Source: a virus | Taxonomy: Duplodnaviria; Heunggongvirae; Uroviricota; Caudoviricetes | Reading direction: 5' to 3' (one strand) | IMG/VR virus record: IMGVR_UViG_2880372215_000012 | DNA length: 38,479 nt | Part shown: positions 15,001 to 30,472 of the stretch, piece by piece | How the letters are laid out: each line of letters starts with the position of its first letter | Numbering within the stretch: the first letter of the stretch is position 1 | The notes under the pieces: generated by a model | Told to the model about the DNA's origin: nothing | What the model saw: the letters and a program-made list of their open reading frames with translations, nothing else | Databases searched by the model: none | Position numbers and translations under genes: made by a program

Positions 15001-15107
15001 GCATCGCTGGCTGCACCATTCAGAAGGTTTTTGATACGGGGAATTTCATTTTTAAACTCTGCCGCATCAATCCCCAAATCAATGACCAGGTTGGCTATCT
15101 GGTCCAT
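12042..15107 (-). CDS. H: Tail tape measure protein H
   Basis: Start taken at MDQIANLVIDLGIDAAEF (lambda MAEPVGDLVVDLSLDAARF); C-terminus ..NNDGTNGQIGPAALKAVYD..RDGG matches the lambda gpH C-terminus; coiled-coil-rich middle. Confidence 0.9.
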   Translation of the reverse strand: MDQIANLVIDLGIDAAEFKNEIPRIKNLLNGAASDAERSSARMQRFMERQTQAARQTMQAASSAATAASVHAQTVEKSAQAHERMAREVEQTRQRMEALSQKMREEQAQAMALAEAQDKAAAAFYRQIDSVKQAGAGLQELQRIQQQIRQARNSGGIGQQDYLALISEVTAKTRVLTQAEEEATRQKVAFIRQLKEQATRQNLSSSELLRAKAAQLGVSSAAEVYIRKMEQAGKATHSLGLKSAAARQEIGVLIGELARGNLGALRGSGITLANRAGWIDTLMSPKGMMPGAVIGGIAAAVYGLGKAWYDGQKEGEEFNRQLSLTGHYAGVTAGQLWTLSRAISGNGITQHAAAGALAQVVGSGAFRGNDIGMVARAAAQMERSVGQSVSDTINQFKRLKDDPVNAAKALDNELHFLTATQLEQIRVLGEQGRSSDAARIAMSALAEETGRRTADIDNNLNALGSTLKYLSDLWSRFWDAAMNIGREDSLDEQIAALQEKVSRAKRLPWTASSSQVEYDQQRLNDLQEKKRQKDLQDAKEQAERNYQEQQKRRNAENAALNRMNETEAARHQREIARINAMQYADQAVRDAAIQRENERYEKALASGKKKTRETRNDEATRLLLQYSQQQAQVEGQIAAARQSAGIATERMTEARKQLLALQQRISDLDGKKLTADEKSVLARKDELIQALTLLDVKQQELQKQTALNELKKKTIQLTSQLAEEERAQRQQHDLDIATVGMGDQQRQRYQVQLSLRQKYQQQLEQLRRDSEQKGTYNTDDYRKAEQALTESLNRQLNENRRYWQQLEVVQGNWKNGVLRAFQDFTVDADNTAETAEQVFSSAFSNMGNGLATFVTTGKLNFKSFTSSVLSDMAKILAQATMMKSIKGIGSVLGFDLSSLSLNANGGIYQSADLSRYSGTVVNRPTFFAFAKGAGVMGEAGPEAILPLRRGADGKLGVVADIGGSGMAMFSPQYNIEINNDGTNGQIGPAALKAVYDLGKKAAADFMQQQARDGGRLSGAYR

Positions 15108-15422
15108 AACGCACACCTCCGGAAATACCTTCCCCAAGATGCATCAGTTCTTCGTCCGTTCGCTCCGGTATCCCGTTCTCTTCCGGTAAAAGGCTGAAAT
15201 CAGCCACCGCAGCATCACTGCTACCGGACACCATTCTCACGATCAATGCCTTCAGCGAGGCAAACTGCGCATCCATCCACACATCACTGAAGCTCTGCAT
15301 CCGGAAATAATCGCCCCACTCACCAAGCTCAGTGGCCGACATTTCCGACAGCATCCGCCGCCAGTCTGCCCGCCGGAACTCCCGGGCAAGCCGCATGACA
15401 AACTGCATTTCCCGCGTCAGGA
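15079..15422 (-). CDS. T: T-frame segment of the tail assembly chaperone G-T, reached by a programmed -1 frameshift from G
   Basis: ORF in the -1 frame relative to G, open from just upstream of the G stop; conserved G/GT arrangement of lambdoid tail operons. Confidence 0.7.
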
Positions 15423-15803
15423 CTTTTCCGGCGTCAGCACCTCATGCTCCAAATCCCCGGCATTCTCAATGGCTCCCATACCGCTCAGCGACAGAACCAT
15501 CTCCGCCCCCGCTCCCAGGGCATCATACGACCATGTTGTAATAACGGATGCGCAAAGCGTCTCAACATCCTGAGACTGTTCCGCATTCCACAGTGAGCGG
15601 GAAACCAGCCAAGCATTGATATCCATCCCCATCCGCAGAAAAGCAATCTGTCGTTCAGCCTCCGGCAGTTCTCCCTCTTCGGCATCAAACTTTGCCGTTC
15701 GCTGCTGAACAAACGCCAGATATTCAATTCTCTGCAGCCCGGACAGCTCACTGAGCACCACGGACTGCTTTTCATAATTAAACGTGCCCTGTTTCAGAAA
15801 CAT
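15417..15803 (-). CDS. G: Tail assembly chaperone G
   Basis: Position between V and T/H; N-terminus MFLKQ..SVVLSELSGLQRIEYLA resembles lambda gpG. Start could equally be 15806 or 15845. Confidence 0.8.
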   Translation of the reverse strand: MFLKQGTFNYEKQSVVLSELSGLQRIEYLAFVQQRTAKFDAEEGELPEAERQIAFLRMGMDINAWLVSRSLWNAEQSQDVETLCASVITTWSYDALGAGAEMVLSLSGMGAIENAGDLEHEVLTPEKS

Positions 15804-18283: not shown

Positions 18284-20242
18284 TTACGCCGTACATTTCA
18301 CCAGACCGCGGTGATCAACTGGCGCGACACCGGCGTCAATACGCACTTTCGTTGTCACGCCATCCACACTGAAGCCCTCCATCTGATCAATATATGGCGT
18401 ATCCACACCGTTGAGATAAGCCACTTCAATCGTATCGGAGCCTTTTGACGCAGCCAGGTAGAAGGTGGTCTGGCTGTTATCATCAAGACGAGGCTCTGCA
18501 ATAACGGTCGCAAAATCTTTCACCGGGTTAATAATACCGGCGTTAATGTCAGCCCCCTTGACACTTGAGGAGCGAATGACCTGGTTAGCAACAGACTCCA
18601 TCGCCGTCGGTACCAGTACGAACGCAGGACGAATATTCAGATGACGCTCCCCCTCTTTCTGAACGCGCATCAACTGGCGGGCTTTATCCAGCGATGCCAC
18701 GTCCATTGCAGCGCTCTCCAGTACGTTTGCATGTTTCGCTTTATCGAACAGACTTACATTATCTGTGGAGATTTTCGGGTTAGACGTCAGAATGGCATAA
18801 ACCAGATCGGCAATAGTGGATTTCGCCGCACGGCCCAGTTTCATCGGGACATCGGTCAGCATATTCAGATCATCATTGATAATGGCCTGACGGGTGATAC
18901 TGAACAGCTCGCCATAGGTCGCCAGTGCAATAGTGGCCTGTTTATCTCCGGTGGTGACGTATTTATATTCCGCCCCTTCACGCACCTGACGCAGAGCACT
19001 GAAGCCCCCCATACCCACACGATGGGCAATTTTAAAATCAGACAACTGACCTTTCCGCGTCCACTGTTCATAGGTTTCAGGGGCATCTTCCCAGCCCTGC
19101 AGAATGGCTTTGTTCGCAACATCCAGCAGAATATTACCGAAGTCAGACGTACTGTGTGTGAACGCCGCACCGACCATCTGCATCGGGTTATAACTGGAAA
19201 CCCCAATACCCCGTTCAGTCAGTGACATACGGGCATATTCACGCAGGGTCATCCCGTTGTAGACATTATCACGTTCGGTTTTTTCAAATCCGGCACGCGC
19301 CATCAGCGCCTGGCGGATCCCATCCCCCACAAAATTACCGTTTCCGGCATAAATATGAGCCGGGGTATTTTTATTAGATGGCGTGGACTCGCGCCCCATC
19401 TCGTTCAACAGCTTTTCGCGGGCCTGCTCCAGCGAACATTCAGGATCGGCAAGACACTGAGCCTGCAGCGTCTGATAACGCCCGCCAAACATGGCAAACA
19501 GATCATTAATACCGTTTACACGCGCTTTTTGCTCTGCCAGTACCTGCGCACGGATACTGTTTTCATCCACCACAGGTGCTGCTGCCTGCACTGGCGTCCG
19601 GGAGGCTGCAGGTCCATCATCCTGTACGCGTGGAGCACTGTTGCGTGGCGGAGTAATCATGTTTCGAATGGATTCCGGCATCTTTTTAAATTCCTCTGTA
19701 CGTTTTGACTGAATACATGCCATTGCCTTAACGGCTGGCGTCACCTGATCAGCAAATCCATGTGCCAGACATTCGGCACCGGACATCCAGGTCTCATCCG
19801 CCAGCATGGCAGCAATTTCATCGGTGGTTTTCCCGGTTTTCTGTGCATAAGCGGGTAACAGAACCGCCTCAACTTTATCGAGCAGGTCGGCATAGGTGCG
19901 CATGTCCTCCGCATCACCGCCCGTAAAGCCAAATGGTTTATGAATCATCATGAAGGAGTTTTCCGGCATAATGACCGGTTTTCCCACCATCGCAATGACC
20001 GACGCCATTGACGCCGCCACACCGTCGACATAAACGGTAATGGACGCACCATGTGTTTTCAGTGCATTAAAAATGGCGATGCCTTCAAAGACATCGCCAC
20101 CCGGTGAATTGATATTGAGATTAATGTGGGTGATATCGCCCAGTGCATTCAGATCACTGATAAACTGCTTCGCTGTAACACCCCAGAAACCAATCTCGTC
20201 ATAAATATAAATATCCGCGTCACTCTGGTGACCAGCCTGCAT
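18284..20242 (-). CDS. Prohead protease (ClpP/S14-like) fused to an HK97-fold major capsid protein
   Basis: N-terminal region ..DIYIYDEIGFWGV..NSPGGDVFEG..ASMASVIA..MIHKP.. is ClpP-like; the C-terminal ~350 aa is capsid-like; lies between portal and head completion genes. The exact start is uncertain (taken at MQAGHQSDADIYIY). Confidence 0.8.
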   Translation of the reverse strand: MQAGHQSDADIYIYDEIGFWGVTAKQFISDLNALGDITHINLNINSPGGDVFEGIAIFNALKTHGASITVYVDGVAASMASVIAMVGKPVIMPENSFMMIHKPFGFTGGDAEDMRTYADLLDKVEAVLLPAYAQKTGKTTDEIAAMLADETWMSGAECLAHGFADQVTPAVKAMACIQSKRTEEFKKMPESIRNMITPPRNSAPRVQDDGPAASRTPVQAAAPVVDENSIRAQVLAEQKARVNGINDLFAMFGGRYQTLQAQCLADPECSLEQAREKLLNEMGRESTPSNKNTPAHIYAGNGNFVGDGIRQALMARAGFEKTERDNVYNGMTLREYARMSLTERGIGVSSYNPMQMVGAAFTHSTSDFGNILLDVANKAILQGWEDAPETYEQWTRKGQLSDFKIAHRVGMGGFSALRQVREGAEYKYVTTGDKQATIALATYGELFSITRQAIINDDLNMLTDVPMKLGRAAKSTIADLVYAILTSNPKISTDNVSLFDKAKHANVLESAAMDVASLDKARQLMRVQKEGERHLNIRPAFVLVPTAMESVANQVIRSSSVKGADINAGIINPVKDFATVIAEPRLDDNSQTTFYLAASKGSDTIEVAYLNGVDTPYIDQMEGFSVDGVTTKVRIDAGVAPVDHRGLVKCTA

Positions 20243-20255
20243 CCTGAACCAGGAA

Positions 20256-21765
20256 TTATTCTTCGGACTGGTCGTCGGTGTGCTGCGGCTCCTGTCGTTT
20301 CGTTGCGGCACTGCTGCCTCCTTTATCACTGGCCGGATCGGTATCAAATACCAGATCCAGCTTGCGGTTTTCATCAATTTCGGCCTTGCGCCGACGTTTG
20401 ACATCATCCGGATTACGACCACCTGCACGTACCCAGTCTGATTCTGTCGCTGCTCCACCACGAATCTGAATTTTCCAGGCCTCAGCCTCCTTAACAGGGT
20501 CAATCCACGGCATCACCGGTCCGGAATACACCGCGGTATACAGTGAAGAACGGTCAAGATCGCGGGGTAGCCTGATAACACCGGATGCCACAGCCTGTTT
20601 CAGCCAGGCACGATACATCGGGCGGGTGACGGCACCAATAAACCAGTCCTGCAGGATCAGGTAGCCATCAGTGGATTCAACCAGCTCCTGACGCTGGGCG
20701 CTGTAAGTGCCGTTATAGTTGCGCGCTGTACTGGAAAAAATTCAGACGACTGCCCGCCGCCACGGCACGCAACTGACCATTACGAAAAGTTTCAAGGTTA
20801 GGATTGGGGCGATCCGACTTCACCATTCCGATTTCTTCGCCGGGTTTCAGATCGTCGTAAATAATGCCTGGCTGAATGGTAAGCTCGCGTTCCTTATCCT
20901 TGCTGCCATTACCATCCGGTTCATAGCTCTGCCCATCGCCTTTCCGGATGTACATCCCCAGAGCAGCGGCGATCCTTGCTGCAGTCAGCTCAGAATCCTC
21001 ATACTCTTTCAGGGCACTGAGGCGGATCAGCACACCGGACAACAAAGACGTCCCGCGCATCTGGTGCAGACGGCGAACAAATTTAAGATGCAGCATTCGC
21101 TCTGCATCCACTTCTTTGGTTTCCATCTGCCGTCCGGATACGGGACGGCTTTTATACACCAGATATTTTTCGGGACGCCCCCAGTCATCAACAAACACGC
21201 CCTGATTCAGCCTGTTGCTCTCATCACTGGTCATGGGAATAAAGTCTGGCTCGAGCGCCTCCAGCCAGAAATGAACACCGGCAGAAGGCGTCAGGCTGTT
21301 TATGCGCCCGGAAACCATCTGGGCAAACACCTCACCATCGCGCAGCCAGGTACGCAGCATCAGACGTTCCAGCATCGGACGGGTAAACTGCCCGGTGACT
21401 TCCGGACTGACAGACCATTCACTCCATCGGGTGCGTATCTCCGCTGCCAGATCACGGGCAATGGCCCCATTGCGTAATACCGGATGTGGCTCGACAATAA
21501 TCCCGTTTTTCCCCACCACCCGTTCTTCCAGCTTGTCAAATACACCAATAACCAGATCGTGGTTGTTATCAAGGTAACGGGCCTGCTCACGTAACGACAC
21601 GGCCCCGTACTGGCTTAACTGGTCGGCAGTTCGGTTTTCCCGCCGGGCTTTGTGTGTCCGCGTCGTTTTTACGGCCTCATAAGCCTGGATCACCGCACGG
21701 GAACGCAGCCTTGCCGCTTTCCATCCTGGTGAAAAAACGCCAATCACATCATCAAGAATTGCCAT
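20256..21765 (-). pseudogene. Portal protein gene interrupted by a frameshift at an A6/T6 homopolymer (20735..20740)
   Basis: N-terminal ORF 20713..21765 ends ..SRLNFFQYSAQL*, while the downstream frame continues ..IFSSTARNYNGTYSAQRQELVES..MYRAWLKQ.. to 20256. Removing one A from the run joins the two into a ~500-aa portal. Confidence 0.7.
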
Positions 21766-21983
21766 CAGAACCTCGCCAGCCGGTACCCGGGATGCCCCCG
21801 TCGTCGTGTAATCAGAGCCGCAAGGCGGCGCTCCCACTCCTGCCGTCCCTGCCGGATCTCAGATAAGTTTTCCATGGTCATCTGCTGACCATTAAAGGTG
21901 ACGGATTTTCCGTCCAGCACCGCCATTTCAGCTTCCGTATAACGCTGAATCATGGCTTCGATATCATTCTGGTTCATAACCAT
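21765..21983 (-). CDS. Head-tail joining protein, gpW-like
   Basis: 72-aa ORF between terminase large subunit and portal, with overlapping stop/start; size and position as lambda W. Confidence 0.6.
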   Translation of the reverse strand: MVMNQNDIEAMIQRYTEAEMAVLDGKSVTFNGQQMTMENLSEIRQGRQEWERRLAALITRRRGHPGYRLARF

Positions 21984-24076
21984 CCTCCGGAAGTCAGCCA
22001 GGGGTTAACATCGTCAGTTACTGTTTTCTTCCGTTTTTGTTTTTTAACAGGCGTGGATACCGGTTCCGGTGAGGGTGACGGTTCGGTACTGTCCGGGACA
22101 CTCTCCAGCCAGGTTTCCCGGCTCGCCCACCCCGGTGCATCCGGCCAGCGGATCTTTTCGTATCCATGCAGAATGACCAGAGCCTCGGCATACACCATCA
22201 GGTCAAAAGCTTCGTTGGCACCGCGACCCGGCTTACTCCATTTCCCGTCACTACTCCGCTCTTCATACGTCAGTTCGTCGTAAAACCAGCTCCCCAGCCA
22301 GTCAGGGAAATGCACATAGCCGGGACCTGGAGAGTCACGCCATAACGCGTTATTCACCCGGTCTTTCAGTGCATCCGTCTGAAGAAGCCAGAGCGGCACA
22401 TCACCTGCGGCCTGCGCCCGTCGGCCCGTTCGTCCGGTGTTATCAGGGAATGTACGGGTGATCAGTTTTGCGCGCCGGATGCTGTCGCCCTTAAACAGGT
22501 AAATACGTTTACCAAGGCCATCACGACGGCAACGACGCCAGAATTTATAGGCATTATCAGTGACCCCGTCTTCACCGCCGGAGTCCACCGCCATTGCCAT
22601 CAGTCGCATTTGTTGAGAAGGATCGGAGGCCAGCGGCCAGCTTTTATGAAAAACATCCGTCAGCAGGACATCCCAGTCTTCCGGATAGCTGGCCGGATCA
22701 ATTCGCTGGCTCTCACCGTCGCTGTCACCGCGCAATGACTGCGTGATGTTGTAACGATCAATAATCCAGCGTTCGCCACGGCTGCCATAGCCCGTTACCT
22801 GAACCACAAAACGGCGATGACGTCCCGCCTGCACATCCACTGTCGCCACAAGGAAATTAACGCCATCCGGCACACTGCTGGAAGGAACTGGCTCTGCCCG
22901 CTGCTCAAGCAGTTCACTTTTTCGTTGCTCCATGCTGGCGCGGGGAAGATAAGGTAATCCCCAGTCGGTATTGATAACCGTCTTGAGTGTTTCTTCACTT
23001 CCGGTTGTCTCGTATTCCTGTTCTGCAGTAAGCAGTTTGTAAACGAGTTGCGAGAGTGTCTGGTAAGCAGCTGCCGGACCCTCCATCCAGAATGACGCAA
23101 TACGTGAGCGTCGGGGATCACCATAACGACTACCATCCGCATTGATGGATTCACCATCCCGCAACCAGACCCCACGTCCGTTCAGCTCACGTTTTTGTTC
23201 AGGCATAATCCGTCCTGAACAGGAAGGACACTGAATATAAGCCGCCTCACTTGCCAGCACGGGATCGGCAATATCACGGAAACCAGCAACCACATCGCCG
23301 CAGGGCTGAAAATACTCACCACAGTGTGGACAGGGCCAGTACCAGCGACGGCGATCGCCACGGTTATAGAGCGACAGTATCCCCGTGGTTGGTGGAGCCT
23401 CATGCGGTGAAGTCCGTCGCCATTTCACATCCTTCACATCCCTGCCGGGGGAACTCTCCACCAGCGTCATACCACTGGACATAAATGTGGTGGTACGTTT
23501 TGAGGCAAGAGAGAAGGCATCCCCCTCGCCATCAATATCTTCCGGAAAACGGTCATAATCCGTCAGCGCCACGCATTTATAATCTGATGAGGACATGATA
23601 TTGACTGACGGCCAGCCGATTTTCAGGTAGTTGCCAGCAAGGAATGTTCTGTCATAAACGTTGTTGTCATTTTTGTTCGGACTCAGGCGACTGACCACTT
23701 CCGGGCTGACGCGAAACGTTCTGGCGAGTCGTTTTTTGGAGTGTTCGCGGGCTTTTTCCTCCGTCATCTGAATGATCAGCATATCCGCAGGATCGCAAAT
23801 CACGTTGTAAATCACCCAGCCGTCAATCAGGCCGATAGTCTTGCCGGTTCGTGCCGGGCCAACAAATATCACTGCGTCGTATTCACGCGAGGCCAGGCAG
23901 TTCATCGGCTCAATAACATACGGTGCCACCAGCGGATCCCACGGGACTGAGTTCCCGGCCCCCATGGGCACCCGCATATACTGAGCAACGGCATCAGCAA
24001 CCCGCATTCGTCTCGGTGCGCGAAGGATATAACCTGAATCGGTTCGTGCTGCCTTTGCGGTTTCCTGATTCAGCAT
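21974..24076 (-). CDS. Terminase large subunit (lambda gpA family)
   Basis: 700 aa; Walker A GPARTGKT near the N-terminus; CPHCG..CPSC zinc-ribbon-like motifs; position after the small subunit. Confidence 0.9.
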   Translation of the reverse strand: MLNQETAKAARTDSGYILRAPRRMRVADAVAQYMRVPMGAGNSVPWDPLVAPYVIEPMNCLASREYDAVIFVGPARTGKTIGLIDGWVIYNVICDPADMLIIQMTEEKAREHSKKRLARTFRVSPEVVSRLSPNKNDNNVYDRTFLAGNYLKIGWPSVNIMSSSDYKCVALTDYDRFPEDIDGEGDAFSLASKRTTTFMSSGMTLVESSPGRDVKDVKWRRTSPHEAPPTTGILSLYNRGDRRRWYWPCPHCGEYFQPCGDVVAGFRDIADPVLASEAAYIQCPSCSGRIMPEQKRELNGRGVWLRDGESINADGSRYGDPRRSRIASFWMEGPAAAYQTLSQLVYKLLTAEQEYETTGSEETLKTVINTDWGLPYLPRASMEQRKSELLEQRAEPVPSSSVPDGVNFLVATVDVQAGRHRRFVVQVTGYGSRGERWIIDRYNITQSLRGDSDGESQRIDPASYPEDWDVLLTDVFHKSWPLASDPSQQMRLMAMAVDSGGEDGVTDNAYKFWRRCRRDGLGKRIYLFKGDSIRRAKLITRTFPDNTGRTGRRAQAAGDVPLWLLQTDALKDRVNNALWRDSPGPGYVHFPDWLGSWFYDELTYEERSSDGKWSKPGRGANEAFDLMVYAEALVILHGYEKIRWPDAPGWASRETWLESVPDSTEPSPSPEPVSTPVKKQKRKKTVTDDVNPWLTSGGWL

Positions 24077-29040: not shown

Positions 29041-29512
29041 GCAGTAAATCCTTTCTATATTTTGGCATAATTCTTCAACATTCGGTAATCGTTCAAAACC
29101 GAATCGGGGAAACGACATAAGCACAGGAGCCCCAGCGACAGCGAAGGAGTTCTGATATATAAGACTCAGACATCATTCATTCCCCGGTTCTCCAATATCT
29201 GTTTCACTCATCATCCATAACTACCTGTAATTGCCCCCCTTTTTTTGTAACAGTTCTTATATTGCTATATAGAATAGCCATTACTAATGCATTTAAATTT
29301 AATAAAATAAAATTATAAAAAACATAAAACACCACGCAAACACACTTAATAAAAACACCGTTACATTAAAAGATAATAAAAACCGCAATAAAAAACGAAT
29401 AAATCAATTGTCTCACGCAATTATAAAACATCATATTGATTACGCACCTTGCATTACAAACTCATGTATGTAAAATACGCGCACCATTCAAAAAAAAGGA
29501 AGACAATAACAT

Positions 29513-30472
29513 ATGAAAAAAAGTGTCATCGCTGGCGTCTTTATTGCTCTGTCATTTACCACGTGTTCAGCTATCGCGAACAGCCTTGCATTATCATTAG
29601 CAAATGATGATGCAGGGAAGTTTCAACCAATACTTAATGATATTTATGGCAATAAACATGAAAACAGAGATGATTACTCACAAGGCTTATTTCTGGGATA
29701 TAGCCACGATATCTCAGACTCGAGCCAATTATCTCTCCATATTGCGCAAGATATTTACTCTCCATCAGGCAGTAATAAAAGACACAACACAGCTGTAACT
29801 GGAGACAGAGCTTTTAGTGCATACACTCACACTGGTATTGAATGGAACTCCCTTGCGAATGACTGGATTCGCTATCGATTAGGTACTGACATAGGTGTTG
29901 TTGGCCCCGACGCAGGCGGTCAGAAAGTACAAAATAAAGCTCATGAGATTATTGGGGCAGAAAAATATCATGCATGGGATGATCAAATAGAGAATCGCTA
30001 CGGTTATACTGTAAAAGGGATGCTATCCATGACACCAAGTATGGATATTTTAGGTGCTAATGTTGGATTATACCCTGAAGTTTCTGCTGTTACTGGAAAC
30101 TTATTTCAATATGTAGCATATGGCGCAACCATTGCCATTGGTAATGATAAAACCTTCAATTCGGATAATGGCTTTGGTCTGCTGGCTCCCCGTGGTTTAA
30201 TGCATATGTCCGATACAAGCGGATTCAAATACAAGATTTTTGCAGGTATGGAAAGACGAGATGTCAATCGCAACTATACTCTCGAAGGAAAAACAATACA
30301 GACGAAACAAACAACAGTATCGCTAAACAAAACTGTTGATGAATATCAAGTTGGCGCAACAATTGGGTATGCACCTGTAGCCTTCACACTAGCATTTAAT
30401 AAAGTAACATCAGAATTCAAGACAGGGGATGACTATTCATTTATAAATGGAGCAATCACCTTCTTTTTTTAA
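29513..30472 (+). CDS. lpxR: Outer-membrane beta-barrel protein, probably LpxR-family lipid A 3'-O-deacylase; opposite-strand moron between ninI and Q
   Basis: 319 aa; signal peptide MKKSVIAGVFIALSFTTCSAIA; C-terminal ..GAITFFF aromatic terminus typical of beta-barrels; length and remembered motifs fit LpxR. RBS AAGGAAG upstream; about 300 bp of roughly 75 percent AT upstream. Confidence 0.55.
   Translation: MKKSVIAGVFIALSFTTCSAIANSLALSLANDDAGKFQPILNDIYGNKHENRDDYSQGLFLGYSHDISDSSQLSLHIAQDIYSPSGSNKRHNTAVTGDRAFSAYTHTGIEWNSLANDWIRYRLGTDIGVVGPDAGGQKVQNKAHEIIGAEKYHAWDDQIENRYGYTVKGMLSMTPSMDILGANVGLYPEVSAVTGNLFQYVAYGATIAIGNDKTFNSDNGFGLLAPRGLMHMSDTSGFKYKIFAGMERRDVNRNYTLEGKTIQTKQTTVSLNKTVDEYQVGATIGYAPVAFTLAFNKVTSEFKTGDDYSFINGAITFFF

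Follow-up and report, generated by a model that had tools for sequence, protein, structure and literature searches.

The lambda-like prophage Sp3 of E. coli O157:H7 Sakai, designated CP-933M in strain EDL933, has been studied before with respect to its functionality. In Table 1 of Asadulghani et al. (2009; PMC2669165), both the portal and the integration functions of Sp3 are scored as defective ('D') and the prophage is listed as lacking a repressor and replication functions; in experiments, neither excision/circularization, nor replication, nor packaging of Sp3 was found (PMC2669165). The Sp3/CP-933M portal pseudogene is thus already known, being tabulated as defective in that study and annotated in Sakai, where RefSeq labels the 3' fragment (ECs_0827) as a pseudogene with the product name 'phage portal protein'. 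In EDL933, PGAP annotates two separate 'phage portal protein' CDSs, the 3' one of which encodes 111 aa.

The nearest relatives of this gene are the portal genes of the phages mEp460, cdtI, Ayreon, Tritos and phi458 and of a prophage in E. coli O55:H7 CB9615, which share 98.6-99.9% nt identity with it and have the same neighbors (terminase, gpW-like gene and ClpP/capsid fusion). Unlike the Sp3 gene, all of them carry AGTTTTT at the site described below and form a single 502-aa ORF. The lambda portal protein gpB (8k38 and related structures) belongs to the same family (PF05136) and its gene occupies the corresponding place among the head genes of the operon, although the sequence similarity is distant; downstream of the portal gene lambda carries C/Nu3/D/E, whereas a ClpP-protease/capsid fusion is found in the DNA analyzed here. 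What the present analysis adds to this picture is modest, namely the exact nucleotide change (coding-strand G to AT), its dating to the time after the O55:H7 split and its allele counts over 5,426 complete E. coli genomes.

The analyzed stretch of DNA (38,479 nt in total, hereafter the window) is prophage Sp3. It aligns in reverse orientation to positions 891197..928364 of the Sakai chromosome with 99.99-100% identity, at a locus situated between ybhC and ybhB and within the annotated 'prophage Sp3, lambda-like phage'. The differences from Sakai consist, in full, of a 1310-bp IS629/IS1203 insertion and two single-base differences in C-runs, so that the Sakai portal pseudogene (ECs_0826/ECs_0827) represents the same locus as the one in the window, without any difference in the portal sequence. 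The 1701-nt portal region was 100% identical in all matches listed (40/40), which comprise dozens of complete O157:H7 chromosomes and include Sakai, EDL933 (resequenced), TW14359, EC4115 and Xuzhou21. The first position of the window coincides with the end of nleH1-1, and the last with the boundary of the int pseudogene.

As summarized in Table 1, the portal gene occupies 1510 nt on the minus strand (21765..20256), compared to 1509 nt (502 aa) in intact orthologues. Its ATG (21765..21763) is part of a TGATG overlap with the stop codon (TGA) of the gpW-like gene upstream, and its final stop codon ends at 20256. The 5' fragment encodes 343 portal residues, including an S342N exchange, followed by seven out-of-frame residues (FQYSAQL). 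In the +1 frame, a TGA is located at 20744..20742, after which this frame stays open from 20741 down to 20256. Since the reading frame of the 5' fragment terminates at the TAA (20715..20713), the frame switch must fall within 20716..20741. For the 5' fragment, PGAP uses a GTG at 21837 as start codon (374 aa), which overlaps the gpW-like gene; in the intact orthologues, the annotated start is the ATG equivalent to 21765, and the GTG start therefore appears to be an inconsistent side-effect of the split gene.

Table 1. Features of the portal locus and its neighbors in the window (positions as given in the analysis; minus, coding strand of the portal gene).
Feature	Position	Strand	Evidence
Portal pseudogene, whole (lambda gpB-type, Pfam PF05136)	20256..21765	-	ORFs, HMM, orthologue alignments
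Portal 5' fragment, 350 codons + TAA	20713..21765	-	Frame 0 translation, PF05136 match
Premature TAA in the shifted frame, 7 codons past the insertion	20713..20715	-	Translation
Portal 3' fragment in the +1 frame, 161 sense codons + stop	20256..20741	-	Translation; portal C-terminal 159 residues
Homopolymer A6 (plus strand) / T6 (coding strand)	20735..20740	.	Sole run of at least 6 bases within 20716..20741
Mutation, coding-strand G to AT	20740..20741	-	Alignments with EC052, 00_3305, PU-1 and O55:H7 CB9615
Large terminase	24076..21974	-	ORF/annotation
Upstream gpW-like head-tail joining gene (DUF6148), stop overlapping the portal ATG	21765..21977	-	ORF/annotation
Downstream ClpP-like prohead protease/major capsid fusion, intact in the window	18284..20311	-	ORF/annotation

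The original prediction had proposed, from the letters of this stretch alone, that a portal gene is split over two consecutive ORFs, that the frame switch lies in an interval containing a six-base homopolymer, and that removal of one base would restore a single ORF of about 500 aa. All of these points were borne out. The coordinates proved exact, the interval is delimited by the two stop codons named above and contains the A6 run, and shortening the coding-strand T6 by one T generated a 1509-nt ORF that encodes 502 aa and contains no stop codon other than the terminal one. The repaired protein scores 272.5 bits against Pfam PF05136 (Phage_portal_2, lambda family; curated cut-off 32.9), and the 5' fragment alone reaches 249.3 bits while covering profile positions 3-324 of 354. 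In addition, the two ORFs are collinear with the single 1509-nt portal genes of other genomes and phages (98-99% nt identity).

The genomic context is in agreement with this assignment. The head operon on the minus strand runs from the large terminase and the gpW-like gene through the portal ORFs to the ClpP-protease/major-capsid fusion, and the annotations of Sakai, EDL933 and CB9615 agree with the window in placing the portal after the large terminase/gpW-like gene and before the prohead protease. The protease/capsid fusion overlaps the 3' end of the portal gene by 56 nt, an overlap that is also present in intact orthologues. An uninterrupted ORF of about 500 aa including the conserved C-terminal third is, however, absent from the window, as the frame is lost beyond codon 343. 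Sequence and gene position place the locus in the lambda portal family, of which it is, with its ORF interrupted, a pseudogene and not a functional member. ECs_0826 and ECs_0827, like the two CDSs that PGAP names 'phage portal protein', are accordingly to be read as one pseudogene, a reading which has little import beyond annotation.

To define the change itself, the window was compared with intact portal genes. In the genomes EC052, 00_3305 and PU-1, the site reads CTG AGT TTT TCC AGT (L S F S S), while the window reads CTG AAT TTT TTC CAG. The difference amounts to a G-to-A exchange at 20741 together with an extra T at 20740, which on the coding strand results in S342N and extends a T5 run to T6. 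The conversion of AGTTTTT to AATTTTTT is therefore composed of a substitution and an insertion and goes beyond a pure run-length slip. The original prediction had traced the frameshift to the homopolymer and had suggested that its length be compared in orthologous prophages. This comparison confirmed one part of the explanation, the intact alleles carrying T5 and thus being one T shorter than the window; the other part fell short, as run length is not the whole change and, taken alone, misses the adjacent G-to-A exchange. For automated triage of such sites, this argues for some caution: a homopolymer-adjacent frameshift need not be a run-length error, and the neighboring base has to be considered as well, since it was changed here too.

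The G-to-AT change can be accounted for either by one complex event or by two steps in either order. Four alleles representing one-step intermediates between the intact and the mutant sequence were searched for by exact match in the 5,426 complete E. coli genomes. AATTTTT, AGTTTTTT and ATTTTTT, the last of which would be in frame (S342I), were each found in 0/5,426 genomes. The fourth, AAGTTTTT, was present in a single one of the 5,426, the human urinary isolate FCI48 (NZ_CM172719.1), in which the portal gene is split at the same spot by an additional A, giving CTGAAGTTTTT (positions 2501..2546 of the FCI48 segment compared). As an ancestral step this allele was ruled out, given that the FCI48 portal gene differs from that of the window at 17 positions and belongs to an unrelated prophage. 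It could stem from a separate mutational event, from a local mutational hotspot or from an error in the assembly.

The distribution of the alleles was determined with a 46-nt probe centered on the site, counting exact matches in the same 5,426 complete E. coli genomes. The mutant allele (…CTGAATTTTTTCCAGTAC) was present in 286 genomes and the in-frame allele (…CTGAGTTTTTCCAGTAC) in 1,227. By this exact search, the shifted allele is confined to the O157:H7 clone. Among phage records covering the portal gene, 16/16, including those of mEp460, cdtI, Ayreon, Tritos and phi458, carry the version that is one base shorter. For comparison, a deletion junction specific for Sp3 (window 32335/32336, see below) was matched exactly in 294 complete genomes, and the frameshift allele and this junction occur in nearly the same set of genomes. 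With 286 vs 294 exact matches, the frameshift appears essentially fixed in the clade carrying this form of the prophage. The 8 of the 294 junction genomes that show no exact match to the 46-nt mutant allele could contain nearby SNPs, deletions or a different allele.

These counts bear directly on the option, left open by the original prediction, that the split merely reflects a homopolymer error in sequencing or assembly, in which case the true genome would be one base shorter and the portal gene intact. The location of the site within a six-base run is what one would expect of such an error, and the two C-run indels relative to Sakai indicate that run-length discrepancies between assemblies do occur in Sp3. 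Nevertheless, many laboratories have recovered this very allele, in a total of 286 complete genomes that span more than 20 years and different platforms, for instance the Sanger-era Sakai sequence and the later resequencing of EDL933. Moreover, the insertion is accompanied by a G-to-A substitution, which a run-length error does not make, and the genomes with this allele largely coincide with those having the Sp3 deletion junction. The identical recurrence over platforms and the adjacent substitution together exclude a sequencing error, which we consider to have practically no probability left: the independent assemblies show the run length of the window and not the one that would be in frame. 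The other option contained in the original prediction, genuine decay of a morphogenesis gene, is instead upheld by the 286 identical genomes, by several further lesions in the prophage and by the reported portal defect of Sp3 (PMC2669165).

The two C-run differences mentioned above are located in the intergenic region between lpxR and Q, at 29133 (C4 vs C5) and at 29239 (C6 vs C7, adjoining a T7). CB9615 agrees with Sakai at 29133. These differences may be genuine variation between strains or errors in the homopolymer lengths of the assembly analyzed.

A comparison with E. coli O55:H7 CB9615, whose lineage is regarded as the precursor of O157:H7, allowed the lesion to be dated. In CB9615, the orthologous prophage likewise occupies the ybhC site, and its portal gene (WP_000985949.1) is intact, with a length of 1509 nt. 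Only three positions distinguish this gene from the one in the window, two of which are the mutation itself (20741 and 20740), the third being a CB9615-private SNP at 20765. As the CB9615 portal gene is intact and differs by little but the mutation, the lesion arose after the split of O55:H7 and O157:H7. The CB9615 prophage furthermore retains int, xis, cI/cro, O and P, in contrast to the prophage in the window. Its own head module is nonetheless damaged elsewhere: the protease/capsid fusion contains a nonsense codon (CAG to TAG) at the equivalent of window position 19312 (position 44083 of the CB9615 segment compared). This nonsense codon shows that decay proceeded independently in CB9615 and that selection on the head module was relaxed. 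The bet gene is frameshifted in CB9615 as well, so that the ancestor shared by the two prophages was probably already decaying.

We also considered whether the shifted frame could be read through. Rescue by the -1 frame was ruled out, as this frame encodes unrelated sequence and stops early; consequently, only a +1 shift could rescue the portal protein. Such a shift might be achieved by a +1 slip of tRNA-Phe on UUU-UUC or by transcriptional slippage on the T6, either of which would give full-length portal protein in useful amounts. The geometry of the site is compatible with this proposal, since the required shift is +1 and a P-site tRNA-Phe re-pairs perfectly on the U6 (AAU UUU UUC C being read AAU UUU UCC), and the +1 product would be wild type save for S342N. 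The ability of UUU UUC to permit re-pairing at +1 is a necessary property of a slippery sequence, yet one that is far from sufficient. In these two respects, the need for a +1 shift and a P-site tRNA that can re-pair, the site resembles the programmed +1 frameshift of the prfB type. In contrast, the three further features of that type, an in-frame stop or rare codon in the A-site, a suitably spaced Shine-Dalgarno element and conservation among homologues, are all missing from the portal site. The codons following the slip site (UUC and CAG) are ordinary ones and neither slow, rare nor stop codons; inspection of the sequence revealed no Shine-Dalgarno-like element at prfB-like spacing; and homologues do not share the need for a shift, which exists in 0/1,227 genomes with the in-frame allele and 0/16 phage records covering the gene, while the shifted allele is restricted to one young clone. 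No stimulatory RNA structure was detected when the coding strand of 20640..20770 was folded (z = -0.34 vs shuffles). As for transcriptional slippage, this is efficient on runs longer than T6. Finally, neither excision, replication nor packaging was found for the prophage (PMC2669165). Recoding to a useful product is thus extremely improbable, in line with the original prediction that the frameshift is unlikely to be programmed, which the genome and phage counts and the fold score given above substantiate. At most, re-pairing of tRNA-Phe on the U6 might in principle yield traces of full-length protein.

The portal lesion is not the only one in Sp3. Relative to CB9615, the int gene has lost 4 bp (GGAT, plus strand) near its 5' end (window 37475/37476), which accounts for the Sp3 int pseudogene ECs_5702. 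A deletion of ~7.4 kb relative to CB9615, with its junction at 32335/32336, has removed gam, kil, cIII, a cI-like gene, cro, cII, O, P, ren and part of ninB, and truncates bet, leaving it as a pseudogene. The IS629/IS1203 copy (IS3 family; 1310 bp, 33927..35236, minus strand; orfA 108 aa, orfB 296 aa) interrupts the homologue of ECs_0807, a DUF1382 family protein in PGAP, and is present at this site in neither Sakai nor CB9615; both of its junctions are matched in one piece by few genomes only, for example AR-0428 and NCCP 15739. Several independent inactivating lesions in essential functions are thus found in Sp3, as is characteristic of defective (cryptic) lambdoid prophages. The Q, lysis and terminase genes located upstream of the portal 5' fragment are intact.

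Downstream of these intact genes, the 350-aa fragment might have been kept for a new role, in which it would poison portal assembly of superinfecting or co-resident phages of the mEp460 type. Besides its location, the retention of most of the Pfam portal domain (3-324 of 354) and the fixation of the allele in the clone would be compatible with such a neofunctionalization. Fixation in a recent clone is, however, no evidence of selection, and two observations fit neutral decay: the O157 strain 2017C-4109 carries the same frameshift plus a further 10-bp deletion within the very same fragment (window 21537..21546; annotated as 'frameshifted' by PGAP), and the sister lineage represented by CB9615 broke a different head gene. 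We therefore consider a dominant-negative role of the fragment to be highly improbable. Neither this reading nor the recoding one finds positive support in the data presented here.

A variant of both ideas, which we mention as a very unlikely speculation, is that low-level +1 slippage of tRNA-Phe, or slippage of RNA polymerase, on the U6 run regenerates some S342N portal protein for co-resident prophages, or that the 350-aa fragment interferes with related phages. If true, Sp3 would trickle functional portal protein to prophages sharing its head module and thereby aid the prophage-prophage complementation described for O157.

Taken together, the sequence comparisons almost certainly identify the split as a vertically inherited inactivating portal mutation, and hence a pseudogene, in the defective lambdoid prophage Sp3/CP-933M of O157:H7. 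In the O157:H7 lineage, after the O55:H7 split, the G of AGT-TTT-TCC was replaced by AT, exchanging S342 for N and adding one base. Ribosomes would then read seven wrong codons and stop at the TAA, leaving a predicted product of 350 aa without the C-terminal 159 residues. The part that would be lost includes the best-conserved segment of lambda-type portals. When the portal sequence was searched with phmmer against proteins of solved structure, only query residues 304-489 were aligned, that is, the region around and after the break; the matches were the portal chain of 8vhx and residues 332-474 of lambda gpB in 8k38 (E = 2.5e-4).

A portal protein truncated in this manner is most likely unable to form the dodecameric DNA channel and, as far as can be judged from its sequence, would be non-functional as a portal ring. 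If no working portal is made, the prophage should be unable to build heads that package DNA. This inferred truncation fits both the 'defective' score and the lack of packaging reported for Sp3 (PMC2669165). The repressor/replication region, the integrase and bet were lost earlier or as well, and the prophage is not under selection for virion production; the portal lesion may have drifted to fixation while Sp3 persisted for its cargo.

This cargo comprises the T3SS effector genes nleH1-1 (1..882), nleC (1710..2729) and nleB2-1 (2763..3743), the positions of which were mapped from the Sakai annotation, as well as the lipid A deacylase gene lpxR (~29513..30472) and pphA, and plausibly explains why Sp3 has been retained. 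Different lineages carry different broken head genes, a pattern to be expected under relaxed selection on virion production, and the two sister lineages, one with a disrupted portal gene and the other with a disrupted capsid/protease gene, offer a small but clear example of how a prophage bearing cargo such as nle effectors and lpxR decays.

Elsewhere in the window, the tail assembly chaperone genes G (15803..15417) and T (15408..15079) are arranged on the minus strand in a lambda-like manner, T being encoded in the -1 frame with respect to G. Two codons before the stop codon of G, at 15423..15431 (minus strand), CCG GAA AAG forms a candidate slippery stretch. This site probably corresponds to the conserved programmed G/GT -1 frameshift and is likely to be a real recoding site in the window.
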